A stretch of DNA of 64,000 bases from a virus (lineage: Duplodnaviria; Caudoviricetes): positions 64,001-128,000 of IMG/VR virus record IMGVR_UViG_3300014204_000122, one strand, 5' to 3'. This document shows positions 109 through 61,778 of this stretch, piece by piece. The position numbers were made by a program, and so were the translations under genes. A model generated the notes under the pieces. That model was not told the DNA's origin, searched no databases, and saw only the letters and a program-made list of their open reading frames with translations. Numbering within the stretch: position 1 is the first letter of the stretch; each line of letters starts with the position of its first letter.

Positions 109-309
109 TTACTCATTGTTTACTGGTATTAAAAATTCTAAATCTTTTAAAAAATTATATGAAATAAAAAAGTGAGTGTTTGTGTTAAGATTTTCTAGAC
201 TATCTTCAAACATTACTATATTAACTGCTTTAATAATAATTTTTTTTAAATCTTCATTATTATTAAAAATTAAAAAATTTTCTAGTTTCTTTGCATCTAT
301 TTTTTGCAT
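109..309 (-). CDS. hypothetical protein
   Basis: 66-aa ORF abutting the upstream nuclease gene in the same minus-strand run. Confidence 0.55.
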   Translation of the reverse strand: MQKIDAKKLENFLIFNNNEDLKKIIIKAVNIVMFEDSLENLNTNTHFFISYNFLKDLEFLIPVNNE

Positions 310-10495: not shown

Positions 10496-12457
10496 TTAAA
10501 TGTATTTGTAAATATCATCTTCAACAGAAATTCCCCATGTTTCATCAGTAATATCGTTTGATAATTCTATATTATTATATTCTTCATAGAACCATAATGA
10601 ATATATTTGATTTTTTTTATCTTGAAATATAAAACCATAATCATAAAATACCATATCGTTATATCCTTCTTTAATATAATCTAATTCTTCAATTATTTCA
10701 TAATTTTCATTTGCTTTAATAAGATTATAATTTTTTTCTATAAATTTTATTTTCTCTGTACTATTTGTGTTAATTACTGTTGAAAAAGGGTAAAGATTTC
10801 TGATTGCAGAATTAGTATTAGTAGGACCATCATAATAAACGGTTTTAGAATCTTCATCAATTTTAACATGATCTTCAATAAATTTATTTTTTATAATATA
10901 ATTTGAATATTTATTTATAAGATATTCTTCAACTTTTTCAGATACAGTTGGAATGAGAATCCAAACTATTTTTTTTTCTTCGTCAACTTTAATTATTTTT
11001 TCTAATCTTTCATCTAATTTAATAGGTTTAATATATTTTGAATATGCCATTTGGCTATTTTCCAAAATAGGTGTTTTATTAATATTTTTATTATAATAAT
11101 CTTCTAAATTTTCTTCAGATTCAAAATATTTAATTTCACTTTTAATTGGATTAAAATTAACCATTTCTCTTCCTTTAATAATTATACCATCATATCCTAG
11201 TTTTAACATTTCAACTTCAATAGTAGTATCTTTACGAAAATCTCTTTTGTCTTTATATTTTTTTGCTATATTACCCCAAAACCAAATTTCCCAATCATTT
11301 AATGTATTAAAAGTTTTAGGGTTTTTAGGAATAGCACCTAATACAAAATGAATCTTACCAAAAGGTTTAGCCATTTGATGATTAGATAAACAAGCTGTAT
11401 ATAAACCATCTCCTAACATTGCTCCACCACCGTTAGGGACTCCTTTTTCTCTCATTCCTCTAACTGTAACGTTTTTACGTTTCCATTTTAAATAATCAGA
11501 GTGAACATCTTCTAATAAATTTTCTTTTTTTAATAAAGATGTATGTTGTATAGTTTTTTCTCCATCTTTAGTAGGTTCAGAATAAACTATTTTTTCAGGA
11601 TTAACTACATATGTTTGATCTTTAAACATATCAATATATTTTTGTCCCTTTCCAGATTTTAAATAAGCTATTGTCGAATGTGGATTGTAATCAGGATAAT
11701 CAGAATGATAAGGAAAAATATCTGTTAATTTTTTATTTATTGAATTTAAAATATTTTTTTTAGAATTATGCTCTCTACATTCAAATTTTAAAACATCATA
11801 TTCTTTATTCTCAAAACATGATATATTATATAATTCTAAAGCTGGTATTTTAAATTCCAAAATACAATCAATTATATCTTTATAACTTTCTATTTCTTTT
11901 GTTTTAAATCCATATAATAATGTTGTGTGTGGTTCAGTCTCTAAACCAAAAGTAGGTTTGTCATATATATCTTCAGTATTTATTTTTTTTTGAATTTCTT
12001 TTAATTTATCAAAATTAAAAAACAACATAGCACATCCATATTCATATTTAGGCTTAGTTCTTTCTTCTAATAATACTTTTTTATTAGTAAGTTTCTCTAA
12101 CATTTCTACCATTGTTTTAACCTTTGATGGATTAAAACTTGATTTCACAGTGGTTGATACTAAATCTTTTCTAATATATCTTTGTATTTTATCATCTAGA
12201 TAATTTTTATCTTGTTTAGAAATTTTCTTTTTAATTATTCTTTCTATAATGTCAATAAGAGTTCTAGAATATGTTGAAGGTGAAATATTTCCTTTATTTA
12301 CTCCAGTTCCTAATTTAATCATCTTGTTTTGATCTTTTTCATTTAAATTCCCAATAGTATTAGCTTCTGGTATAGTTCTTTTAACGGCAGCCATTGCTAT
12401 ATTTAATATAACAAATCCTTGGTTATCATCTGAGGGAATAGGATAATTAATATTCAT
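10496..12457 (-). CDS. multidomain protein with a 2H phosphoesterase (T4 gp57B/Acb1-like) domain and a possible ART-like domain
   Basis: EPHTTLLYG and NPHSTIAY (two Hx[T/S] motifs); LGDGLY...GYDGIII module; internal tag copy EKLTNKKVLLEE. Confidence 0.65.
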   Translation of the reverse strand: MNINYPIPSDDNQGFVILNIAMAAVKRTIPEANTIGNLNEKDQNKMIKLGTGVNKGNISPSTYSRTLIDIIERIIKKKISKQDKNYLDDKIQRYIRKDLVSTTVKSSFNPSKVKTMVEMLEKLTNKKVLLEERTKPKYEYGCAMLFFNFDKLKEIQKKINTEDIYDKPTFGLETEPHTTLLYGFKTKEIESYKDIIDCILEFKIPALELYNISCFENKEYDVLKFECREHNSKKNILNSINKKLTDIFPYHSDYPDYNPHSTIAYLKSGKGQKYIDMFKDQTYVVNPEKIVYSEPTKDGEKTIQHTSLLKKENLLEDVHSDYLKWKRKNVTVRGMREKGVPNGGGAMLGDGLYTACLSNHQMAKPFGKIHFVLGAIPKNPKTFNTLNDWEIWFWGNIAKKYKDKRDFRKDTTIEVEMLKLGYDGIIIKGREMVNFNPIKSEIKYFESEENLEDYYNKNINKTPILENSQMAYSKYIKPIKLDERLEKIIKVDEEKKIVWILIPTVSEKVEEYLINKYSNYIIKNKFIEDHVKIDEDSKTVYYDGPTNTNSAIRNLYPFSTVINTNSTEKIKFIEKNYNLIKANENYEIIEELDYIKEGYNDMVFYDYGFIFQDKKNQIYSLWFYEEYNNIELSNDITDETWGISVEDDIYKYI

Positions 12458-12461
12458 TGTT

Positions 12462-12899
12462 TTATTTATCTTCTAATAATACTTTTTTGTTAGTAAATTT
12501 TTCTAGTTTTTCTATTAAAACTTCTAGATTTTTATTAAAATTTTCAACATAAATATATTTTTTTACATTACTATGCTCTTCTATCTCTTTTTTCGTAAAT
12601 ATAAGCGCATTAGAAGCAATATTAAATGTTCCGCCTACTTCTCTAGGGCAATTTTCTAAACTCTTTAAATCATTATTAAACACATTAAAATCGCCTGTGA
12701 CAGAAATAAAATTAACAGGAATTTCTTTTAAACTGCAATTAGGAAGCTCTATACTGCCATTAACTCTAACTTGATAATCAGAATAATAATCTTTTAATAT
12801 ATTTAATTGTTCTAACTCTATATTTCCTTTATATAATAGTTCATTGTGGATTTTATCACTAGTTATAGTAACATTTTGATCAAAAATTTCTTTTTTCAT
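12462..12899 (-). CDS. LRR-like protein with C-terminal tag
   Basis: VTGDFNVFNNDLKSLENCPREVGGTF repeat; ends LIEKLEKFTNKKVLLEDK; ATG at 12899 preferred over the GTG at 12950. Confidence 0.65.
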   Translation of the reverse strand: MKKEIFDQNVTITSDKIHNELLYKGNIELEQLNILKDYYSDYQVRVNGSIELPNCSLKEIPVNFISVTGDFNVFNNDLKSLENCPREVGGTFNIASNALIFTKKEIEEHSNVKKYIYVENFNKNLEVLIEKLEKFTNKKVLLEDK

Positions 12900-13030
12900 T
12901 TTAAATTTGTTTTTTAAAAGTAAAGGTGGCGCTTTTAAACAGACAACCACCTTTTTAACTCATTAAGCTCATAACCATAATTAAATATTAAAAAAAATAA
13001 AAAAATTATATATTTAAAAATAAAATTAAC

Positions 13031-13690
13031 ATGAAAGAGATACAATTAGCCAAAATACTTGTAGATTATTACGAAAACAAAGGATATGAATGTTATAAAG
13101 AAGTGAGTTCATCAGGTAGTGGTGGATCTAAAAGAGCTGATTGTTATTTTATAAAAAAAGAAAATGGAGAAATAATTGATTCTTTTTCAGTTGAAACTAA
13201 AATGACACTGGGATTAAATGTTATAGAACAAGCTTATAAGTGGAAACCTCAAGCAAAACGTGTATATGTGGGAGTTCCTCGATTGAAAAGAAAACCTGTA
13301 AAAGCAAGAAAGTTTGCAATGTTTGTTTGCAATAAATTAGGCATAGGTATTATTGAAATAGCAAAAGGAGATATTAAAATTATACAAGAGGTAGAAGATA
13401 ATTTAAAATATAAAATGCCACCATTATATGAAGAACAAAAAAAATCTAAAGCAGGAAATGCAAAATCTCAATTTTTTACAAAATATAAAAAAACTATAGC
13501 TAATATAGATAAATTTATGAAAGACAAAAAAGAATATAGTTTAAAAGATTTATTAAATCAAATAGAACATCATTATTCAAATAATCTTTCAGCACATGGA
13601 TGTATAATAAAGTATATTAAAAAGGGAATTATAAAAAATTATACTACTAAAAGAGGAAATAAGTGTATAATGTTAGTTAAAATTAAATAA
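13031..13690 (+). CDS. PD-(D/E)XK family nuclease-like protein
   Basis: YKEV..RADC..SVETK..VIEQA motif pattern. Confidence 0.65.
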   Translation: MKEIQLAKILVDYYENKGYECYKEVSSSGSGGSKRADCYFIKKENGEIIDSFSVETKMTLGLNVIEQAYKWKPQAKRVYVGVPRLKRKPVKARKFAMFVCNKLGIGIIEIAKGDIKIIQEVEDNLKYKMPPLYEEQKKSKAGNAKSQFFTKYKKTIANIDKFMKDKKEYSLKDLLNQIEHHYSNNLSAHGCIIKYIKKGIIKNYTTKRGNKCIMLVKIK

Positions 13691-13691
13691 G

Positions 13692-13772
13692 TTCCCACGA
13701 CAGGATTCAAACCCGCATTTTCAACATTCAATTACGTATACTTGATCCGTATTCAAGCTCGGTTACGTAGGA
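13692..13772 (-). ncRNA. D-arm-less tRNA-like RNA, anticodon ACG (Arg)
   Basis: Acceptor TCCTACG/CGTGGGA; hairpin CTTGA-ATACGGA-TCAAG; T arm GCGGG-TTTGAAT-CCTGT; only 8 nt between acceptor and anticodon stems. Confidence 0.6.
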
Positions 13773-13786
13773 ATAAAAATAAAAAG

Positions 13787-13882
13787 TCTAGTGTGAGGGA
13801 TTCGAACCCTCGGATAATACTACCTGTGTACCACCGCACGCTTCCAAGACGTGCATCTTAAACCTAACTCGACCAACACTAG
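13787..13882 (-). tRNA. tRNA-Pro(UGG) with long variable arm
   Basis: CTAGTGT/ACACTAG-A; CACGT-CTTGGAA-GCGTG; about 25-nt V region; TTCGAAT T loop. Confidence 0.8.
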
Positions 13883-13892
13883 TTATAATTAG

Positions 13893-13964
13893 TAGCCCTA
13901 GATTGATTCGAACAATCATCAAGTCATTCGTAGTGACCCATTCTATCCGTTGAACTATAGAGCC
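13893..13964 (-). tRNA. tRNA-Arg(ACG)
   Basis: Cloverleaf with GGTCA-CTACGAA-TGACT. Confidence 0.92.
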
Positions 13965-13973
13965 TCAAATTTG

Positions 13974-14058
13974 CTGATTAGGTACGACTCGAACGTACAA
14001 GCTCTTTACGAGCACTTGCTTCAAAGACAAGTGTGTTTACCAATTCCACCACTAATCA
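13974..14058 (-). tRNA. tRNA-Gln(UUG) with long variable arm
   Basis: TGATTAG/CTAATCA-G; CTTGT-CTTTGAA-GCAAG; V arm GCTC-GTAAA-GAGC. Confidence 0.8.
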
Positions 14059-14064
14059 ATATTG

Positions 14065-14137
14065 TATCCATAGATGGGTTTGAACCACCGACCGCCAAGG
14101 TATAAGCTTGGAACTCTGACCACTGAGTTATATGGAT
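14065..14137 (-). tRNA. tRNA-Ile(UAU)
   Basis: CCAAG-CTTATAC-CTTGG; acceptor ATCCATA/TATGGAT. Confidence 0.88.
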
Positions 14138-14160
14138 ATATTTCAATTAACTTAATCTAG

Positions 14161-14235
14161 TCGAGGTGGTGAGATTTGAACTCACGAACCGACGTTTCCA
14201 GGACGCCGTTGTATAACCATCTGCATAACACCTCG
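14161..14235 (-). tRNA. divergent tRNA-Pro(UGG)
   Basis: CGAGGTG/CACCTCG-A; GGCGT-CCTGGAA-ACGTC (C33, A37); weak D stem. Confidence 0.7.
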
Positions 14236-14248
14236 TTATATTTTTTTG

Positions 14249-14319
14249 TTGTCTTACAAGGATTCGAACCTTGAATACCTGGATCAAAACCAGATGTGTT
14301 ACCATTACACTATAAGACA
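14249..14319 (-). tRNA. tRNA-Gln(UUG)
   Basis: TCTGG-TTTTGAT-CCAGG; U1:A72. Confidence 0.92.
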
Positions 14320-14391
14320 ATATATTTTAAAATCTAATTCTATGTTTCTCTGTCTATCGATCCTTTAAATTAGTAACGGTCTCCTGTATCG

Positions 14392-14467
14392 TCTAGGTAG
14401 TGAAATTTGAATTCACGTGCTCTGCATCCCAAATGCAGCGAGATAAACCTGACTCCTCTATACCTAG
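14392..14467 (-). tRNA. tRNA-Pro(UGG)
   Basis: CTGCA-TTTGGGA-TGCAG; C1:G72, A73. Confidence 0.92.
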
Positions 14468-14490
14468 TTATATATTTTTAAATTTTAAGC

Positions 14491-14527
14491 AAAAAAAAAT
14501 CTCAATCAAATTACTGATTGAGATTTT
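14491..14527 (-). terminator. attenuator terminator of tRNA array 1
   Basis: AAAATCTCAATCAG-TAAT-TTGATTGAGATTTTTTTTT on the minus strand. Confidence 0.85.
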
Positions 14528-14559
14528 CTATTAAAATATGAAATATTAACGTAAAACTT

Positions 14560-14649
14560 TTAAATTTTAATATTCAATTTTAAACATGACTCAATCAGGC
14601 TGCTTCTGCGCGGCTGTTGAGGTATTTGTATGTTTAAAATTGCGTTCAT
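14560..14649 (-). CDS. leader peptide 1 (MNAILNIQIPQQPRRSSLIESCLKLNIKI)
   Basis: 29-codon ORF between promoter repeat and terminator; codons 7-14 ATA CAA ATA CCT CAA CAG CCG CGC match array 1 tRNAs. Confidence 0.8.
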   Translation of the reverse strand: MNAILNIQIPQQPRRSSLIESCLKLNIKI

Positions 14650-14664
14650 TTTGTTTATTTTATT

Positions 14665-14767
14665 TTTAAATATTACTTTTTTATTTATTTATTATTAATA
14701 TAAGAAATTATTTTTGTTTTATTTCTATTTTGATACCCTAAAGATATATTTTTTTATAATACAAACC
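14665..14767 (-). promoter_or_regulatory. composite promoter block of tRNA array 1 (repeat copy A)
   Basis: About 100 bp nearly identical to 18125-18227; carries TTTG..TATCTTTAG, TTCTTATATT and ATATTTAAA elements. Confidence 0.7.
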
Positions 14768-15180
14768 TAATATTTTGAATTATTTTTTAACACTATACCA
14801 TTTTTATAAACTTCATACTCATAAAAACGAGGTAATCCATATTTTAGAGCTTCTGCTAAATCTGTCCATTCTTCTTCAGAAACCATATCATCTGGATAAG
14901 AAAAATTACCTTTTAAATGAGCAGGTATAGGTCTTAAATTAACTAAAACTAATTCACCTTCACCACCTTTAACATCTATTGCTAATTCTTCTGTGCTCCA
15001 ATCTGATTTAGTATCGATAATTTCTTCAACTCTATCACGAATTTCTTTTTGTGTATAAATTTTAGGTGTTGGAGGATCAGGAAACATATCTTCTTTCAAA
15101 ATTATTTTTTTTCCTGAAATTCTTTGTAATTTTTCAGTAAGCAATTGTATCTCTAATTGTTTTTCCTTTTCTGATTTCAT
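14767..15180 (-). CDS. tagged putative internal head protein
   Basis: MKSEKEKQLEIQLLTEKLQRISGKKIILKE tag. Confidence 0.75.
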   Translation of the reverse strand: MKSEKEKQLEIQLLTEKLQRISGKKIILKEDMFPDPPTPKIYTQKEIRDRVEEIIDTKSDWSTEELAIDVKGGEGELVLVNLRPIPAHLKGNFSYPDDMVSEEEWTDLAEALKYGLPRFYEYEVYKNGIVLKNNSKY

Positions 15181-15181
15181 T

Positions 15182-15568
15182 CTATTTTTCTTCTATATCT
15201 TCAATTTCTACATCACTATTTTCAAAATCTATAGGTTCTACACTTATTTGTGGTTGAGTTTCTTCTCCCTCTAATGCTTTATCAACACTGATAATTTCAC
15301 AAGAAACTATGTTAGTGAATACTTTTAATCTTTTATCAATTGCATTTTTAAGTTCTTCTTCTGAAGGTTCAAGATTATTTGTAATTATAATTTTACCTTC
15401 AATAAGAGTAGGTTCAAACCCTTCAAATAAAACAGATACTTTAAATAAATAAGTAATATTGTTCCAATAACTATTCATTTCTGTAAAAACTACTTTCTTG
15501 CCAGATATTCTTTGAATTTTTTCTGTAAGTAATTGTATCTCTAATTGTTTTTCTTTTTCTGTTTTCAT
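15182..15568 (-). CDS. tagged putative internal head protein
   Basis: N-terminal tag ending VVFTE. Confidence 0.75.
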   Translation of the reverse strand: MKTEKEKQLEIQLLTEKIQRISGKKVVFTEMNSYWNNITYLFKVSVLFEGFEPTLIEGKIIITNNLEPSEEELKNAIDKRLKVFTNIVSCEIISVDKALEGEETQPQISVEPIDFENSDVEIEDIEEK

Positions 15569-15580
15569 TATTGTTTATAG

Positions 15581-15838
15581 TTATACAGTTATTTTATTCC
15601 AAAAATCATTTAATTTTTTATCTGCACCCACTGCTAATTGAATTATGTCTTTAGATATAGGTCCTCCTATGATTTTAGCTGATTCTATAATGGCTTTTAA
15701 TTTTTCTGCTACTATTAAAATATCTTTTATATTATTAGTGGCTTCGTTTTCTTTTAAAACTACTTTCTTGCCAGATATTCTTTGGATCTTTTCAGTAAGT
15801 AATTGAATTTCTAATTGTTTTTCTTTTTCTGTTTTCAT
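15581..15838 (-). CDS. tagged putative internal head protein
   Basis: N-terminal tag ending VVLKE. Confidence 0.75.
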   Translation of the reverse strand: MKTEKEKQLEIQLLTEKIQRISGKKVVLKENEATNNIKDILIVAEKLKAIIESAKIIGGPISKDIIQLAVGADKKLNDFWNKITV

Positions 15839-15844
15839 TATTAA

Positions 15845-16261
15845 TTAAATACTGATTGTTTTTACTTCTTGAATATTTAGTTTTCCTGGAACTACTATAA
15901 AAGTAACATTTTCACAAGTCCATTTATCATAATCATCGAATGATTCATGTTTGCACTCTTCAATAAGCTCTAAAGCATCTTCTGATTCTTTTTTATCTAT
16001 AAGAGTTAAAAAATTAAGTAAGGCAATTTTTCTATTGATTCCTTTTACATAACTTATTTCTGAAACGTCTGCATTTCCTGAATTAGATTGTGAATAAACA
16101 GTAAATATTTTTTCTTCTTCTTGAGGTTCTCCTGGTTCCATAAGTTCTTCGATAATATCTTTGTCTTCACTTTCTGTAAAAACCACTTTCTTGCCAGATA
16201 TTCTTTGAATTTTTTCTGTAAGTAATTGTATCTCTAATTGTTTTTCTTTTTCTGATTTCAT
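15845..16261 (-). CDS. tagged putative internal head protein
   Basis: N-terminal tag ending VVFTE. Confidence 0.75.
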   Translation of the reverse strand: MKSEKEKQLEIQLLTEKIQRISGKKVVFTESEDKDIIEELMEPGEPQEEEKIFTVYSQSNSGNADVSEISYVKGINRKIALLNFLTLIDKKESEDALELIEECKHESFDDYDKWTCENVTFIVVPGKLNIQEVKTISI

Positions 16262-16296
16262 TTTATTTATATTTTAATTATTTACTTTAAATATAA

Positions 16297-16920
16297 TTAA
16301 TTTGGTTTTCCTACTAAAATTTTATAATGTTTTTCACCTGCAATGTCTCTTAAATACCAGCCTTCTTTTATATTAGATCCTTTAGGATTCTCTCCAACCC
16401 ATGTTACTTTCTTTCCTAATACTTGTTCTACTTCTTGTTGATTGTTTATAATAGGTACATTATATCTTTCTAGAACTTTCATTATTCTATTATCAACTTC
16501 ACAATAAAAACCTTGATTCTTTACTTTATTTGCAGCTCTTTCAAAATAAGATATAATAGAAGCTCTTGCTCCATCGTGTCCTACTCCTACTAATTTAATA
16601 CCGTGTTTAGTATTTTTTCCAAAATATAATACATCTATATCAGGATCTTGATCTATATCTACTACTTCTACATAAGAAAAATCATCATTTGATAAAATAT
16701 CATTTGTTGACTTTATATTACTATGACCTCCAATTTGAGAATATGCTATATTAATAAGTTCAAGAAATTCATCTACTAGTTCTGGGTGAGATTTTATATT
16801 GATTTTCTCCCACTCATGTTTTTTTAATCCTAATTTTGATGATTCTTTTTCTATAAGAATGACTTTGCTTTTAGAAATTTTTTCTAATTTTTCAATTAAT
16901 AATTGTAAAATAGGTTTCAT
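16297..16920 (-). CDS. protein with divergent N-terminal tag
   Basis: MKPILQLLIEKLEKISKSKVILIE. Confidence 0.7.
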   Translation of the reverse strand: MKPILQLLIEKLEKISKSKVILIEKESSKLGLKKHEWEKINIKSHPELVDEFLELINIAYSQIGGHSNIKSTNDILSNDDFSYVEVVDIDQDPDIDVLYFGKNTKHGIKLVGVGHDGARASIISYFERAANKVKNQGFYCEVDNRIMKVLERYNVPIINNQQEVEQVLGKKVTWVGENPKGSNIKEGWYLRDIAGEKHYKILVGKPN

Positions 16921-16985
16921 TTATAGCATTTTATTATAAATATAGGAAAGTAAAATATAAAAATTAAATTTTATAATATTTTTTG

Positions 16986-17068
16986 TACTCTAGGTCAGAC
17001 TCGAACTGACACGCTTGAGGGCGACGACGCTTAAAATCGTTGTGTACTACCAATTTCACCACTAGAGC
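16986..17068 (-). tRNA. tRNA-Leu(UAA)
   Basis: ACGAT-TTTAAGC-GTCGT; long V arm. Confidence 0.9.
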
Positions 17069-17073
17069 ATTTG

Positions 17074-17155
17074 TGATCTAAGAGAGATTTGAACTCTCAC
17101 TATTTACATAATTAGCTTCTTAAACTAACGTGTCTACCAATTCCACCATTAGACC
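17074..17155 (-). tRNA. tRNA-Leu(AAG)
   Basis: TTAGT-TTAAGAA-GCTAA; Leu-type D arm. Confidence 0.88.
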
Positions 17156-17163
17156 ATATTTTG

Positions 17164-17253
17164 CGGAAGATGAGGGGGTCGAACCCTCGTAACGGTTTTT
17201 AAGCGTCCTAATTGTTTAGCAAACAATCCTCTTTACCATTTGAGTAACCTTCC
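17164..17253 (-). tRNA. tRNA-Ser(GCU)
   Basis: ATTGT-TTGCTAA-ACAAT; long V arm; G73. Confidence 0.92.
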
Positions 17254-17265
17254 ATTTTATTTTTG

Positions 17266-17340
17266 TAGATTAGAAGGGAGTCGAACCCTCACTGAATAGT
17301 TTCTAAAACTATTGCCTCTTAACCATTGGGCTACTAATCC
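17266..17340 (-). tRNA. tRNA-Leu(UAG) with short variable loop
   Basis: ATAGT-TTTAGAA-ACTAT followed by a 5-nt V loop. Confidence 0.82.
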
Positions 17341-17354
17341 ATTTATATTTTTTG

Positions 17355-17445
17355 TACTCCAGGTCGGACTCGAACCGACAGTGTTTTCTCAATGAGTGTC
17401 ACCGTTTAAAAGTGATGCGTTTCAACCAAGTTTCGCCACTGGAGC
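17355..17445 (-). tRNA. tRNA-Leu(UAA)
   Basis: TCACT-TTTAAAC-GGTGA; long V arm. Confidence 0.9.
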
Positions 17446-17464
17446 ATATTTATTTTTTTATTTG

Positions 17465-17537
17465 GGTGAAAACGGGGCTCGAACCCTGTCCTAGATATTC
17501 ACAGTATCTCATGCTAACCAATAACACTATTTTCACC
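17465..17537 (-). tRNA. tRNA-His(GUG)
   Basis: G-1:C73; AGATA-CTGTGAA-TATCT. Confidence 0.9.
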
Positions 17538-17546
17538 ATATATTTG

Positions 17547-17639
17547 CGGAAGAAGTAGGATTCGAACCCACACACCCCTAAAGGCCCTCGGTTTTCAAGA
17601 CCGCCGCCGCTACCCTGCAAGCTTTCGGCTTATTCTTCC
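17547..17639 (-). tRNA. tRNA-Ser(UGA) with expanded D arm
   Basis: GCGGT-CTTGAAA-ACCGA; D arm GCCG-16nt-CGGC; G73. Confidence 0.82.
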
Positions 17640-17653
17640 ATTTTTTTATTTAG

Positions 17654-17743
17654 GGTGAAAGACGAGTCACGATCTCGCATTAAGTTGTTACACTATTCCA
17701 GAACCACAATCTGGTCGGCATCCAATTACCGGCTACTAACACC
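17654..17743 (-). tRNA. divergent tRNA-His(GUG) with long variable region
   Basis: G-1:C73; CCAGA-TTGTGGT-TCTGG; 19-nt V region; atypical D and T loops; two U.U acceptor mismatches. Confidence 0.65.
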
Positions 17744-17831
17744 ATATATTTTTAAAATAATATTATAAGCCGTACACTTTTCACAGTCGCTATGGGTTTC
17801 AACCATTTAGTACTTATAATATTATTTAAAG

Positions 17832-17915
17832 CGGAAGAAGAGAGATTCGAACTCTCGAAGCTTTTACACCCAGTTGTTTTCAAAACAATGTCCTCATGCC
17901 TACCGGATTTCTTCC
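17832..17915 (-). tRNA. tRNA-Ser(UGA), atypical D arm
   Basis: GGAAGAA/TTCTTCC-G; TTGT-TTTGAAA-ACAA; long V arm. Confidence 0.8.
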
Positions 17916-17936
17916 AAATTTATTTTTTTTACAATT

Positions 17937-17948
17937 ATTTCAATGAAC
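17937..17948 (-). promoter_or_regulatory. boxA-like antitermination element
   Basis: GTTCATTGAAAT between the terminator and the first tRNA. Confidence 0.55.
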
Positions 17949-17959
17949 TATATACAAAC

Positions 17960-18000
17960 AAAAAAAACCCTTGATCAATTTATTTAGATCAAGGGTTTTT
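17960..18000 (-). terminator. attenuator terminator of tRNA array 2
   Basis: AAAAACCCTTGATC-10nt-GATCAAGGGTTTTTTTT. Confidence 0.88.
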
Positions 18001-18026
18001 AATATTAACTTTTAAAATTATAGAAA

Positions 18027-18119
18027 TTATCTTTTCGTTAAATCATACCTTGATCCACATCTGCTACTTGATAACAGGTGTAAATGCGATAACAACGATA
18101 TGATAACTATTTTTTTCAT
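18027..18119 (-). CDS. leader peptide 2 (MKKIVIISLLSHLHLLSSSRCGSRYDLTKR)
   Basis: 30-codon ORF; codons 8-19 are exclusively Ser/Leu/His, matching array 2. Confidence 0.82.
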   Translation of the reverse strand: MKKIVIISLLSHLHLLSSSRCGSRYDLTKR

Positions 18120-18124
18120 TTTCT

Positions 18125-18227
18125 TTTAAATATTACTTTTTTATTTATTTATTATTAATATAAGAAATTATTTTTGTTTTATTTCTATTTTAATGCTCTA
18201 AAGATATATTTTTTTATAATACTAACC
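18125..18227 (-). promoter_or_regulatory. composite promoter block of tRNA array 2 (repeat copy B)
   Basis: Near-identical to 14665-14767. Confidence 0.7.
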
Positions 18228-18247
18228 AAATTATTTTAAATTATTTT

Positions 18248-18892
18248 TTATTTCATTACATATAGTTGGTATTTTCCTTTAGGAAATTCTTTAATTTCTT
18301 CAGGTGTATTAGCTGTTGCTAAAACCTTAGTTAATGTTCCAACATAGTAAGGATTATAAATTTTTGCTTTTCTATTATAAAGAGATGGAAGTTTAGTTGT
18401 ACCATTTCCATCATCAAATAAATATAAATCTCTATTATCTTTTAAATATTCTTCTGTTTTTCCTGAACCTGATAAAATAATTGTTTTATCATTTCCCACA
18501 AGTTTAAGTAAAAAATATGCTGTCTTATTTTGCACAAACTCATTATTTAATGGATTTTGCGTATCAATTTTACTATCTGAATTTAAACAAGCTATTTTTA
18601 TTCCTTTCTTTTCTTCTTCTAATATAATACTTTTATTAGATAATGTTGAAAATGCACTTTCATTTAGCACTTCAAAAACCAATATACCGTTACCACCAAA
18701 TTTTGAATTATTTCCTACTAATTGTCCCTCTTCATCAAATCCTAAATGAGACCAACCATCTTCTTCTAATTCTTTTTTAAATTCAGGATCTAATTCAACC
18801 TCTTCTTTTAAAACTACCTTCTTACCAGATATTCTTTGAATTTTTTCAGTAAGCAATTGTATTTCTAGTTGTTTTTCTTTTTCTGATTTCAT
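18248..18892 (-). CDS. tagged putative internal head protein
   Basis: N-terminal tag ending VVLKE. Confidence 0.75.
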   Translation of the reverse strand: MKSEKEKQLEIQLLTEKIQRISGKKVVLKEEVELDPEFKKELEEDGWSHLGFDEEGQLVGNNSKFGGNGILVFEVLNESAFSTLSNKSIILEEEKKGIKIACLNSDSKIDTQNPLNNEFVQNKTAYFLLKLVGNDKTIILSGSGKTEEYLKDNRDLYLFDDGNGTTKLPSLYNRKAKIYNPYYVGTLTKVLATANTPEEIKEFPKGKYQLYVMK

Positions 18893-58760: not shown

Positions 58761-58847
58761 ATGAAAAAGTGGTATACATATAGAACAATTATGACAGCCT
58801 TTAATAAAGGGGTAGAGGATTGTGGTGTACTCGATATTCGGATTTAA
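58761..58847 (+). CDS. leader peptide 3 (MKKWYTYRTIMTAFNKGVEDCGVLDIRI)
   Basis: 28-codon ORF; the first 21 codons contain exactly the 15 amino acids served by array 3. Confidence 0.85.
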   Translation: MKKWYTYRTIMTAFNKGVEDCGVLDIRI

Positions 58848-58872
58848 ACATTAATAAAGTAATTAAATATTT

Positions 58873-58906
58873 AAACCCGAATCAGTAAAAAGTTTCGGGT
58901 TTTTTT
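58873..58906 (+). terminator. attenuator terminator of tRNA array 3
   Basis: AAACCCGAA-12nt-TTCGGGTTTTTTT. Confidence 0.85.
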
Positions 58907-58929
58907 ATCCGGAAAAAAAAATAAAAAAA

Positions 58930-58941
58930 GTTCTTTGACAT
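58930..58941 (+). promoter_or_regulatory. boxA-like antitermination element
   Basis: GTTCTTTGACAT between the terminator and the first tRNA-like RNA. Confidence 0.6.
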
Positions 58942-58957
58942 ATTGGTATAAAAAAAT

Positions 58958-60130: not shown

Positions 60131-60255
60131 CAATAAATTAAATAAATAAATAAAAATTAAATTATAAGTAAAATGAAAAAACAAATTAAGCAAGTCAAAC
60201 TTTAGAACAACACCTCTATCAAGGATACGTGTTGTAAAAATTAAAAAATTACAAT

Positions 60256-60335: not shown

Positions 60336-60427
60336 GCGTTTGTTCGCTTAGCCCGGTCGAAAGCACCACTCTTTTAAAGTGGATAGTTATTATAACTACA
60401 TCGTAGGTTCAAATCCTACCAGACGTA
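60336..60427 (+). tRNA. tRNA-Lys(UUU) with long variable arm
   Basis: CCACT-CTTTTAA-AGTGG; V arm TAGTTA-TTA-TAACTA. Confidence 0.85.
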
Positions 60428-60438
60428 CTTAATTATAT

Positions 60439-61596: not shown

Positions 61597-61668
61597 GCAA
61601 GAGTAGCTCAGGGATAGAGCGATTGATTACCAATCAATAGGTCGGGATTTTGAAACTCCTCTCTTGCT
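61597..61668 (+). tRNA. tRNA-Gly(ACC)
   Basis: ATTGA-TTACCAA-TCAAT; G1:C72, C2:G71, U73. Confidence 0.82.
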
Positions 61669-61778
61669 CAAATTTTCTCTCCCAAAACAAGATAAATAGG
61701 TAGGAGGTAGGTGTGTTAAATCTTTTAACATAAATTTTAAAGTTTTTCTTTTAATTTATCTTGTTTTTTATTATTTTT

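Follow-up and report, generated by a model that had tools for sequence, protein, structure and literature searches.

The closest described systems are the ribosome-mediated attenuators of bacterial operons. The leader of ilvGMEDA carries Ile, Leu and Val codons and that of thr carries Thr and Ile codons, both controlling biosynthetic enzymes; a stall on any of these regulatory codons raises read-through, and tRNA charging reflects the amino-acid supply. The trp leader has two Trp regulatory codons, and the ribosome that has reached its stop codon covers region 2. tRNA genes are commonly regarded as constitutive or growth-rate controlled, and the roles proposed for the tRNA arrays of large phages include compensation of codon usage, replacement of tRNAs after breakdown of those of the host, and escape from anticodon nucleases.

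The window, i.e., the whole stretch of 64,000 nucleotides analyzed here, belongs to the 136,569-bp contig (136.5 kb; 26% GC) of an uncultured T4-like phage. One of its tRNA arrays lies behind a short ORF and a terminator hairpin. As judged from its sequence, this arrangement is likely to be a ribosome-mediated (leader-peptide) transcription attenuator placing tRNA supply under feedback control, through which the phage would probably make these tRNAs only when ribosomes decode the corresponding codons slowly.

Like the ilvGMEDA and thr attenuators, the phage unit combines a short leader holding the codons of several amino acids with an intrinsic terminator and an alternative antiterminator. It differs from them in that it would regulate the tRNAs themselves, in that its codons are isoacceptor-specific (ATA for UAU and CGC for ACG) and in that it is viral and recurs ahead of all three amino-acid-sorted arrays of the phage. 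Sequence similarity to the enterobacterial leaders was not detected, no Rfam leader family (Trp, His, Leu, Thr or Phe) being matched in 13600-14800 at E<=10. With the E. coli trpL leader it shares the four regions and their 1:2, 2:3 and 3:4 pairings, a region 1 placed over the regulatory codons, a terminator that is the most stable of the pairings, a switch that would hence be kinetic and a predicted termination when the leader is left untranslated, and the energy hierarchy of the three pairings resembles the textbook trp values. Unlike in trp, the stop codon lies 27-28 nt beyond region 2 in both the phage unit and its ortholog, so that the off state would rely on refolding of 1:2; moreover, the regulatory codons of the phage leader number eight and stand for four amino acids, and its target is a tRNA operon.

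Leader-peptide attenuation of a component of the translation apparatus is exemplified by E. coli pheST, although this system is cellular, targets a synthetase and involves a single amino acid, whereas the phage unit targets tRNA genes. Likewise, the T-boxes of Firmicutes read tRNA status through a codon-like element and act through a terminator/antiterminator switch. They differ, however, in binding the tRNA directly without a ribosome, in having one specifier codon and in their conserved T-box loop, whereas the phage codons lie in a conserved ORF. A literature search, with most subscription journals outside its reach, returned no publication on leader-peptide control of tRNA genes. What the phage would present is a known mechanism, ribosome-mediated attenuation, in a new setting, phage tRNA genes.

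Organization of the locus

Unit 1 is read from the minus strand in the order late-type promoter motif, 29-codon ORF, terminator hairpin with a U9 tract and array of seven tRNA genes (Table 1). The leader ORF put forward in a first-pass annotation of the window is indeed present, as a frame running from ATG through 29 codons to TAA, and it would supply the short 5' ORF with a credible start that characterizes an attenuator. Its start context is A-rich and contains no Shine-Dalgarno motif, an absence that is the norm in this genome (96 of the 102 long ORFs). Starts of this kind, along with the GC content of 26%, hint that the host may be Bacteroidota-like. The upstream gene ends at 14767, and the stretch between it and the leader is free of terminators. 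The ATG stands at a position usual for a gene start, behind a motif that capsid genes also have; both the start context and the promoter motif are of the same kind as those of ordinary genes of the phage.

The motif TAATATTTAAA starts 26 nt ahead of the leader ATG (14675 to 14649), and ~15 nt separate its end from the ATG. Sequences of the form T(A/T)ATATTTAAA occur in 33 copies versus ~9.5 expected, and about half of these copies lie 19-73 nt ahead of an ORF start. They precede the major capsid protein gene, prohead-side genes, portal-adjoining genes and all three leaders of the phage, a distribution from which we infer a late-type promoter. When the sequence was scanned with the sigma-70 consensus, promoter-like sites were no commoner than in shuffled sequence. 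Inspection by eye of the interval between the terminator and the first tRNA revealed no separate promoter: the first tRNA begins at 14467, only 22 nt past the U tract, and these 22 nt offer no usable hexamer spacing and thus no room for a promoter of its own.

Table 1. Features of unit 1 and its two sister units (positions in the window).
Feature	Position	Strand	Basis or remark
Upstream block TATCTTTAGGGTATCAAA	14729..14746	-	Conserved; identical in the ortholog L190 and in L122 and L163 units
17-nt AT box	14691..14707	-	Common to the three leader units of this phage
Late-type promoter motif TAATATTTAAA	14665..14675	-	Putative promoter
Leader ORF, ATG start, 29 codons + TAA	14560..14649	-	Read directly from the sequence
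Regulatory codon run, codons 7-14	14608..14631	-	All eight read by array tRNAs
Region 1 CCUCAACAGC, codons 10-13 (anti-antiterminator 5' strand)	14613..14622	-	Pairs with region 2 in the minimum-energy fold
Region 2, antiterminator strand, codons 17-21 (core CUGAUUGAG, 14598-14590)	14589..14599	-	9-bp duplex with region 3
AU-rich spacer hairpin, stop codon to terminator	14529..14572	-	In the minimum-energy fold
Region 3, terminator 5' arm	14514..14529	-	Fold
Region 4, terminator 3' arm + U9 tract (14499-14491)	14491..14509	-	16-bp stem, then U9
Regulated array: Pro(UGG), Gln(UUG), Pro(UGG), Ile(UAU), Gln(UUG), Arg(ACG), Pro(UGG)	13786..14467	-	ARAGORN + Rfam RF00005 (Infernal)
Sister unit 2: leader with 12 consecutive Ser/Leu/His codons, then terminator	17963..18119	-	Sequence
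Sister unit 3: leader sampling the amino acids of the array that follows (19-20 tRNAs), then terminator	58761..58907	+	Sequence

The leader codons match the tRNA array

Codons 7-14 of the leader were found where the first-pass annotation had placed them and encode Ile-ATA, Gln-CAA, Ile-ATA, Pro-CCT, Gln-CAA, Gln-CAG, Pro-CCG and Arg-CGC. The count of eight cognate codons out of eight lets the UGG anticodon read CCU. ARAGORN and Infernal agreed on the array as originally described, with three Pro(UGG), two Gln(UUG), one Ile(UAU) and one Arg(ACG) tRNA. An additional ACG tRNA-like RNA (~13692-13775), also part of that description, can be seen by eye; it was recognized neither by ARAGORN at a lowered threshold nor by Rfam at E<=10. 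The match between leader and array extends to isoacceptors, ATA fitting the UAU tRNA and CGC fitting the ACG tRNA, and AGA at codon 15 is read by a tRNA of another array.

The set of cognate codons has a frequency of 0.10-0.11, and the analytic probability of such a run in a 28-codon ORF is ~5e-7. The run of eight is longer than any other cognate run in the six frames of the contig (136,569 bp) and is the sole one exceeding six codons among its 623 small ORFs from ATG to stop. These eight consecutive array-cognate codons provide the tie between regulatory codons and regulated product that is seen in attenuators. Three of the codons, CAG, CCG and CGC, have frequencies of 2.0, 1.0 and 0.4 per thousand in the long ORFs of the phage, and their choice may have served a GC-rich hairpin as much as sensing. 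Derivation of the leader from fragments of tRNA genes was considered and rejected, as an antisense fragment yields the codon once and not an in-frame run.

Alternative pairings and stall register

The pairings 1:2, 2:3 and 3:4 are mutually exclusive, with region 1 placed within the regulatory codons. The terminator consists of 16 pairs at 14529-14494 followed by the U9 tract to 14491 (-17.2 kcal/mol), i.e., a stable hairpin with a U tract directly behind it, as is typical of intrinsic terminators. On the minus strand of 13500-18500 a terminator scan returned this as its one strong site, plus a weak site of 5 pairs; the terminator of unit 2, whose 10-nt loop is above the limit of the scan, was left out. 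The 1:2 hairpin has a core of -10.5 kcal/mol and reaches -16.7 to -19.9 kcal/mol when extended, the extended form spanning 14642-14575 having -19.7 kcal/mol and a z of -6.5. The first-pass annotation had also pointed to a 9-nt complement between leader and terminator, and the terminator 5' arm does contain CTCAATCAG, to which CTGATTGAG of codons 18-20 (14598-14590) is exactly reverse-complementary. The perfect 9-bp 2:3 duplex has -12.1 to -12.8 kcal/mol, a complementarity (-12.1 kcal/mol) that was equalled in 2 of 300 shuffles, and the fold of the whole leader has a z of -5.7. The models thus predict a 2:3 antiterminator, a 1:2 hairpin with region 1 on the regulatory codons and an intrinsic terminator, as in a classical attenuator.

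Folds computed without a ribosome contained 1:2 and 3:4 at every transcript length, and at equilibrium the terminator always won. Therefore, switching must be cotranscriptional, which is also the case in trp. The check that had been proposed for the locus, cotranscriptional-type folding, was carried out as a model calculation with an assumed 31-nt ribosome footprint and with region 4 not yet made; 2:3 formed for A-site positions at codons 5-14 but for none at codons 15-25, as would be expected of a stall-dependent antiterminator. Arithmetic with the 31-nt footprint confines the state in which region 1 is fully covered and region 2 is free to about codons 9-13. In the model, productive stall positions coincide with the codon run 7-14.

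The distance from region 2 to the stop codon had been flagged from the start as a difficulty, and rightly so: the strand ends 27 nt before the stop codon, and a terminating ribosome therefore cannot mask it, so that the off state needs refolding of 1:2, which is a kinetic assumption. Masking of region 2 by a ribosome at the stop codon, as in trp and his, is absent from unit 1 (27 nt) and from its ortholog in L190 (28 nt), and the geometry for it is present in six other units, in which the gap measures -6 to 8 nt. The attenuator model would survive the 27-nt gap, given that the ortholog has a gap of 28 nt and that a strong 1:2 hairpin is predicted to be able to recapture region 2 in both once a ribosome has passed without stalling.

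Sister units and related phages

Each of the three leader units of the phage precedes an array of its own, and the arrays are sorted by amino acid. The array of unit 2 is composed solely of Ser, Leu and His tRNAs. In L122, the leader of the unit 3 ortholog is conserved as a peptide and has changed in step with its array, which has gained Ser and lost Glu. Behind their terminators, unit 3 and the ortholog L190 have a boxA-like element, and unit 2, L122, L163 and L186 have a weaker one; in unit 1, the 22 nt leading from the U tract to the first tRNA contain none.

Twelve units from four related phage lineages (that of the window, the 83% lineage and two 61% lineages) were compared; some of them are orthologs, hence not all are independent, and the leader ORFs were picked by eye without a blind rule. 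All 12 have retained an open frame, 19-53 codons in length. The match between leader and array was expressed as a binomial score against background codon use. Either 9 or 10 of the 12 leaders, according to the wobble rule applied, had their best match in their own array or in an identical one belonging to a tandem unit, and one further leader had it in the orthologous array of a relative; none of 200,000 permutations reached the observed sum of scores. Correspondingly, the leader segment complementary to the terminator arm was specific to the own terminator in 7 of the 12 units, and the summed leader-terminator complementarity was also reached by 0 of 200,000 permutations. For region 2 of unit 1, the own terminator arm was the best partner among the 12 arms (z ~ -4.6). 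In the second tandem unit of L122 the finder picked the 2:3 pairing as the terminator, and the arm-specificity value of that unit is not meaningful. When the leader alone was folded, at least 7 nt of region 2 paired upstream in 8 of 11 units, mostly with codons 7-13. The set also includes L158:4376 (Ile-UAU), with two ATA codons and without a significant antiterminator, and L186:1177, which matches its single Lys tRNA weakly; several tRNAs in the relatives have no leader at all.

The ortholog of unit 1 in L190/L192 shares the promoter block of the latter, and the first tRNA-Pro of the ortholog and that of the window are 77% identical. Its array comprises Pro, Pro, CAU, Ser, His, Leu and Leu tRNAs and no Gln, and its leader run comprises Ile-ATA, Leu, His, Pro and Ser codons, Gln being missing here as well; a CGC codon of the leader has no cognate tRNA in the recovered part of the array. 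In this lineage Gln belongs to a different array, one shared with Leu and Glu and preceded by a leader composed of codons for these three amino acids. The leader and terminator sequences of the window and of L190, as well as the leader peptides, cannot be aligned, yet the RNA geometry is that of the window, with region 2 at codons 19-22, a distance of 28 nt from there to the stop and a terminator arm beginning at nt 125. According to the model, 2:3 of the ortholog forms only with the A site at codon 15 or before, which is the end of its run, and its fold has a z of -5.0. As read from these comparisons, the ortholog leader has changed along with its re-assorted tRNA set, and such covariation, both across the 12 units and in L190, is the strongest support for the proposed attenuator.

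Attempts to widen the comparison gave little further material. Contigs from the landfill source run and small pieces from freshwater, wastewater and soil showed no differences inside the leader or terminator and hence added no covariation. None of the sequencing runs listed as containing the sequence was an RNA run. A 1274-aa ORF had no match by tblastn in the phage collection, and the genes on either side of the first two arrays (products of 219 aa and 972 aa) led to no relatives. An alignment of capsid proteins, used as the query, added only three contigs, the examined stretch of which contained no tRNAs, and the tRNAs of array 1 and of the 61% lineage were too diverged to yield search patterns.

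Alternative explanations

A translation-dependent attenuator could simply report general translation capacity, that is, ribosome availability, coupling or global starvation, with the codon match adding little. The ribosome-free fold consists of 1:2 and 3:4, the terminating state, so that any change in leader translation would alter the output, and the fact that region 2 is unmasked at the stop codon would make the switch sensitive to overall ribosome speed. However, this explanation does not account for the match of leaders to their own arrays across the 12 units (0 of 200,000 permutations), for the change of the ortholog leader with its tRNA set or for a run that ends exactly at the last productive stall, and we regard it as improbable. 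T-box-like sensing without translation, in which the anticodons of uncharged tRNAs would pair with the run and stabilize the antiterminator, is very improbable. The run is by definition complementary to the anticodons of the array, and the unit would control genes of the tRNA system, but the run is in frame with an ATG at a normal distance from the promoter motif, frames of 19-53 codons are open in 12 of 12 units despite the frequent stops of 26% GC DNA, and the orthologous leaders of unit 3 are conserved as peptides. Neither the T-box family (RF00230) nor any other Rfam cis-regulatory family was matched at E<=10, alignment of orthologous units revealed no conserved element resembling the T-box loop, which pairs with the 3' end of the tRNA, and T-boxes read a single specifier codon.

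The contig holds 623 small ORFs, terminators behind gene clusters are common, and no terminator separates the end of the upstream gene (14767) from the leader, all of which would suit a chance ORF next to the ordinary terminator of an upstream cluster or late transcript, with the tRNAs arising from leaky read-through. Such a coincidence is scarcely credible in view of the probability of the run alone (~5e-7), the rarity of the 2:3 complement (2 of 300 shuffles), the recurrence of the same layout in two sister units and in nine units of relatives, with own-array and own-arm matches, and the conserved geometry of an ortholog whose leader and terminator sequences no longer align. The leaders might instead encode a functional micropeptide, the hairpins being processing or protein-binding sites and the terminator merely ending a small gene. 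Most units do begin with Met-Lys or Met-Asn, and residues at both ends of the peptide are common to the orthologous unit 3 leaders; beyond the N-termini, however, the peptides of the 12 units have no common sequence, the conserved C-terminal residues of unit 3 coincide with the antiterminator strand, and the window and L190 leaders are unalignable as peptides even though their RNA geometry is kept. A micropeptide is thus a very improbable explanation of the units.

Proposed mechanism and physiological role

The leader-peptide attenuator suggested in the first-pass annotation held at every point that the sequence allows to be tested, namely the ORF, the codons, the terminator, the exclusive pairings and the stall register. 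In this mechanism, transcription would start at a late-type phage promoter, only a few nucleotides ahead of the leader ATG, and ribosome loading would be immediate. If aminoacyl-tRNAs for ATA, CAA/CAG, CCN and CGC were scarce, the ribosome would stall on codons 7-14 and cover region 1, and the freed region 2 (CUGAUUGAG) would pair with the terminator 5' arm as the latter emerges. No terminator would then form, and RNA polymerase would proceed into the seven tRNA genes (Pro, Gln, Ile-UAU and Arg-ACG). If decoding were fast, the ribosome would advance, 1:2 would re-form behind it and hold region 2, and 3:4 would form and stop transcription at the U9 tract. Since the products of the array are the very tRNAs being tested, the circuit would be one of negative feedback, i.e., a controller of tRNA supply.

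As a tentative extension, the three units could form an inducible circuit of counter-defence and supply, in which each amino-acid-sorted array is switched on separately when the host tRNAs for its codons are depleted; we consider this possible, though rather unlikely. Depletion could be caused by host anticodon nucleases or other tRNA-targeting defences, by a phage-induced breakdown of host translation or by a mismatch in codon usage. If this were the role of the units, the phage would read tRNA availability codon by codon and replace only the missing tRNAs.

Should the attenuator operate as proposed, the phage would measure the decoding speed at defined codons and adjust its own tRNA output by feedback, and the sorting of the arrays by amino acid would have its explanation in a translated codon test coupled to a terminator. 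The question of why large phages carry and use tRNA arrays would become testable with simple reporters. Additionally, the units could serve synthetic biology as compact, codon-specific sensors of tRNA availability, and their signature, a small ORF followed by a terminator and by tRNAs with a codon-anticodon match, could be used to annotate such units in viral metagenomes.

Further upstream elements

Two more elements lie upstream of the promoter motif (Table 1). The 17-nt AT box occurs in exactly three copies in the 136.5-kb contig, every one of them ahead of a leader. It was not found in the ortholog L190, and as a marker for IMG/VR viral contigs it proved non-specific, giving more than 117 matches, mostly to unrelated AT-rich DNA. 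The conserved upstream block TATCTTTAGGGTATCAAA may be a second promoter or a regulator site. Variants of this block with 3 mismatches each are located at both sister units of the window, and a related TTTAGG..TATAAT block is seen at units of the 61% lineages.

Unit 1 and its proposed mode of action

The window lies within a 136,569-bp IMG/VR contig (26% GC), and Pfam hits to Gp23 and the T4 portal protein identify the phage, at the level of sequence, as a T4-like myovirus. ARAGORN called 30 tRNAs, all inside the window and arranged as three arrays. The first (array 1) starts 22 nt past a terminator that follows a short leader ORF, the whole being referred to here as unit 1 (see table). Codons 7-14 of this leader read ATA CAA ATA CCT CAA CAG CCG CGC, as the first-pass annotation had given them, and CTGATTGAG (14598-14590, minus strand) is indeed an exact complement of the terminator 5' arm. 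The best-supported reading of this arrangement is that unit 1 is a putative ribosome-mediated attenuator controlling array 1. Slow decoding of ATA, Gln, Pro or CGN codons would increase transcription of the array, and since the array products would relieve the stall, the circuit would constitute a feedback loop. Possible triggers are mismatched codon usage, depletion of host tRNAs and defences that target tRNAs.

This way of working resembles that of the multivalent ilv and thr leaders, and the four-region layout is common to unit 1 and trp. Unlike these systems, unit 1 would regulate tRNA genes, its codons are isoacceptor-specific, the element is viral and repeated once per array, and region 2 is unmasked at the stop codon. 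An Rfam search of unit 1 returned no leader family and no T-box membership, and literature searches turned up no account of tRNA genes under the control of a leader peptide.

Coordinates of the units and associated features (window positions unless a contig of a relative, L followed by a number, is named; nt of regions 1-3 counted from the A of the unit 1 leader ATG)
Feature	Position	Strand	Content
Leader ORF, unit 1	14649-14560	-	ATG, 29 codons
Region 1	nt 28-37, codons 10-13	-	5' strand of the 1:2 pairing
Region 2	nt 51-61, codons 17-21	-	alternative partners: region 1, region 3
Region 3	nt 121-136	-	terminator 5' arm
Terminator, unit 1	14529-14491	-	16-bp hairpin and U9 tract
Array 1	14467-13786	-	seven tRNAs: Pro, Gln, Pro, Ile(UAU), Gln, Arg(ACG), Pro
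Second conserved block	14746-14729	-	~95 nt upstream; common to relatives
T(A/T)ATATTTAAA copies	52323, 50748, 48172, 45025	+	upstream of ORF starts
T(A/T)ATATTTAAA copies	23108, 16296; others	-; 	upstream of ORF starts
Unit 2	17963-18119	-	sister unit
Unit 3	58761-58907	+	sister unit
boxA-like element	58930-58946	+	
boxA-like element	17932-17948	-	
boxA-like element, relatives	L190 past terminator; L122 ~7958; L189; L186 ~2346		
Tandem paralog genes	14767-16261, 16297-16920, 12462-12950, 10496-12457	-	near-identical N-terminal segment (strand given for 14767-16261)
Unit 3 ortholog	L122		leader kept at peptide level, Ser codons gained, Glu lost; array 3 ortholog with Ser added, without Glu
Unit	L163/L189		leader Leu, Glu, Gln; array Leu, Glu, Glu, Leu, Gln
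Unit	L158:1323		leader Pro, Ile, Val, Glu, Asp, Ala; array Pro, Glu, Asp, Pro, Ala, Ile, Val
Unit	L158:9473		leader five Gln codons; array single tRNA-Gln
Unit	L158:4376		leader two ATA codons; array tRNA-Ile(UAU)
Unit	L186:2180		leader Val, Ile, Asp, Cys, Ala, Glu; array Glu, Asp, Asp, Ala, Val, Cys, Cys, Ile, Ile

The start context of the leader is normal for this genome, as Shine-Dalgarno-like motifs precede only 6 of 102 long ORFs and starts are A-rich. The motif T(A/T)ATATTTAAA occurs in 33 copies (~9.5 expected), about half of them 19-73 nt upstream of ORF starts, including those of the major capsid protein, prohead-side genes and portal-adjoining genes, and it lies 16-31 nt upstream of all three leader ATGs. 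It is probably the late-type promoter of the phage, the counterpart of TATAAATA in T4, which would place the leader at the extreme 5' end of a late transcript.

Predicted switching and the stall range

In the proposed switch, pairing of regions 1 and 2 (1:2) forms the anti-antiterminator, 2:3 the antiterminator and 3:4 the terminator. Computed energies in unit 1 are -10.5 kcal/mol for the 1:2 core hairpin (-16.7 to -19.9 kcal/mol with its AU extension, codons 3-7 plus 21-25), -12.8 kcal/mol for 2:3, a perfect 9-bp duplex, and -17.2 kcal/mol for 3:4. In ribosome-free folds, 1:2 followed by 3:4 formed at all transcript lengths, so that termination is the predicted default. In folds constrained by a presumed 31-nt ribosome footprint on a transcript still lacking region 4, 2:3 was the minimum-energy structure with the A site on codons 5-14 and ceased to be so on codons 15-25, because the ribosome itself sits over region 2. 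By arithmetic with the same footprint, region 1 is wholly covered and region 2 free at about codons 9-13. In these models, the run of codons 7-14 coincides with the positions at which a stall would be productive. The terminator is always the stabler structure in the full-length transcript; therefore, switching must be kinetic, as in trp.

Neither the codon run nor the folds are typical of chance. Of the codons in this genome, 10-11% are cognate to array 1; in the six frames of the contig every other such run is shorter than these eight, and among its 623 ATG-to-stop small ORFs the run is unique (next runs 6, 5 and 4), with an analytic probability of ~5e-7 for a 28-codon ORF. Frequencies in the long ORFs of the phage are 2.0, 1.0 and 0.4 per thousand for CAG, CCG and CGC, three adjacent codons of the run. 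Against shuffles, the fold of the leader region scored z = -5.7 and the 1:2 hairpin alone z = -6.5, and the 2:3 complementarity was attained in 2 of 300 shuffles.

Sister units and relatives

The same layout recurs in the two sister units. Array 2 holds only Ser, Leu and His tRNAs, and its terminator is preceded by a leader with twelve Ser/Leu/His codons in succession; array 3 (19-20 tRNAs, 15 amino acids) likewise follows a terminator and a leader with codons for nearly all of its amino acids. The ~100 nt upstream of units 1 and 2 are nearly identical. Relatives were retrieved by capsid-protein searches (one lineage at 83% identity, others at 60-63%) and further units by searching viral and metagenome contigs with the conserved-promoter-block pattern. 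The same kind of unit is present in each lineage found, with differing content, and in the unit 3 ortholog of L122 the changes in the leader parallel those in the array. The fit is imperfect: the leader at L186:1177 weakly matches its single Lys tRNA, the Ile unit of L158 lacks a significant antiterminator, and several tRNAs of relatives lie downstream of ordinary genes without a leader.

These correspondences were scored over 12 units, which are partly non-independent, with leader ORFs chosen by eye and six arrays that clearly differ in content. Each leader was compared with each array (binomial tail against background codon use). In 9 or 10 of the 12 cases, the number varying with the wobble rule, the best match was the leader's own array or an identical one belonging to a tandem unit; in one further case it was a relative's orthologous array. 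The observed sum was attained in none of 200,000 random re-pairings, and for the first eight units taken by themselves the true pairing ranks best of 40,320 permutations. Analogously, when the best duplex of each leader with each terminator 5' arm was computed, the own arm was the best partner in 7 of 12 units (in unit 1, -12.1 kcal/mol, the other leaders averaging -5.7, sd 1.4), and the observed sum was again attained in 0 of 200,000 permutations. Thus, codon content and antiterminator covary with the downstream array and terminator, respectively.

No RNA run was listed as containing the sequence, and no differences were found within the unit 1 leader or terminator among the DNA contigs compared. 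A diverged ortholog is carried by two metagenome contigs of the same sequence (L190 and L192), with the same upstream block and a first tRNA-Pro 77% identical to that of unit 1. Its array holds Pro, Pro, a CAU tRNA, Ser(UGA), His, Leu(UAG) and Leu(UAG), and its leader codons 5-15 specify Ile-ATA, Leu, His, Ile-ATA, Leu, Pro, Ile-ATA, Ser, Arg-CGC, Pro and Leu; the leader has gained His, Leu and Ser and lost Gln, matching the change in the array, and the tRNA cognate to CGC is absent from the recovered part of the array. Judging by the three ATA codons, the CAU tRNA may be a lysidine-requiring Ile tRNA; this argument is partly circular. Leader and terminator are no longer alignable with those of unit 1, but their geometry is preserved: a two-tier 1:2 hairpin occurs in both, as does a terminator arm starting at nt 125, and in constrained folds of the ortholog 2:3 forms only with the A site at or before codon 15, the end of the codon run.

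This comparison bears on the caveat in the first-pass annotation that region 2 lies about 30 nt before the stop codon. The gap is real, measuring 27 nt in unit 1 and 28 nt in the ortholog (region 2 at codons 19-22), and its conservation points to design rather than accident. Accompanying the long gap, the strong 1:2 hairpin could recapture region 2 behind an unstalled ribosome. In six other units region 2 adjoins or overlaps the stop codon. When the leader was folded alone, 8 of 11 units had at least 7 nt of region 2 paired to upstream sequence, mostly codons 7-13.

Additional elements

In units 2 and 3 and most relatives, the interval from the terminator to the first tRNA contains a boxA-like element (GTTCTTTGACATATTGG and variants); unit 1 lacks it there, but the ortholog on L190 has it. 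The element could be an rrn-type antitermination signal, shielding the untranslated tRNA transcript from Rho. In the 83% lineage, tandem leader-terminator units of 33 and 53 codons precede the array 3 ortholog (L122:7489-7920), each with its own terminator and antiterminator, an arrangement that reads as a double gate. In one 61% lineage, a CAU-anticodon tRNA directly follows the conserved promoter block without leader or terminator (L186:1960-2097), which fits with ATG being unusable as a regulatory codon in a leader. Inside array 3, a 10-codon Lys/Ile/Val-rich ORF and a hairpin without a U tract (60174-60250, plus strand) lie upstream of a Lys, Lys, Val, Asp, Ile sub-block and may represent an internal checkpoint or a decayed attenuator.

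Two tRNA-like sequences were seen by eye. The ACG tRNA-like RNA of the first-pass annotation, a degenerate sequence with an ACG anticodon-like loop 3' of the last array 1 tRNA (13692-13775, minus strand), was recognised by neither ARAGORN nor Rfam; the other, between Ala and Gly in array 3 (61600-61670, plus strand), has an apparent ACC anticodon and was uncalled by ARAGORN. Several tRNAs exceed the usual length (Pro 97 nt, Gln 86 nt and Lys 93 nt; 13786-13882, 13973-14058, 60336-60428 and others), with an additional arm within the variable region, which is unexpected in these isotypes. Finally, four tandem genes directly upstream of the unit 1 leader share nearly identical N-terminal segments of ~30 residues, and a related ~20-residue segment recurs in larger neighbouring proteins, forming a modular paralog family.
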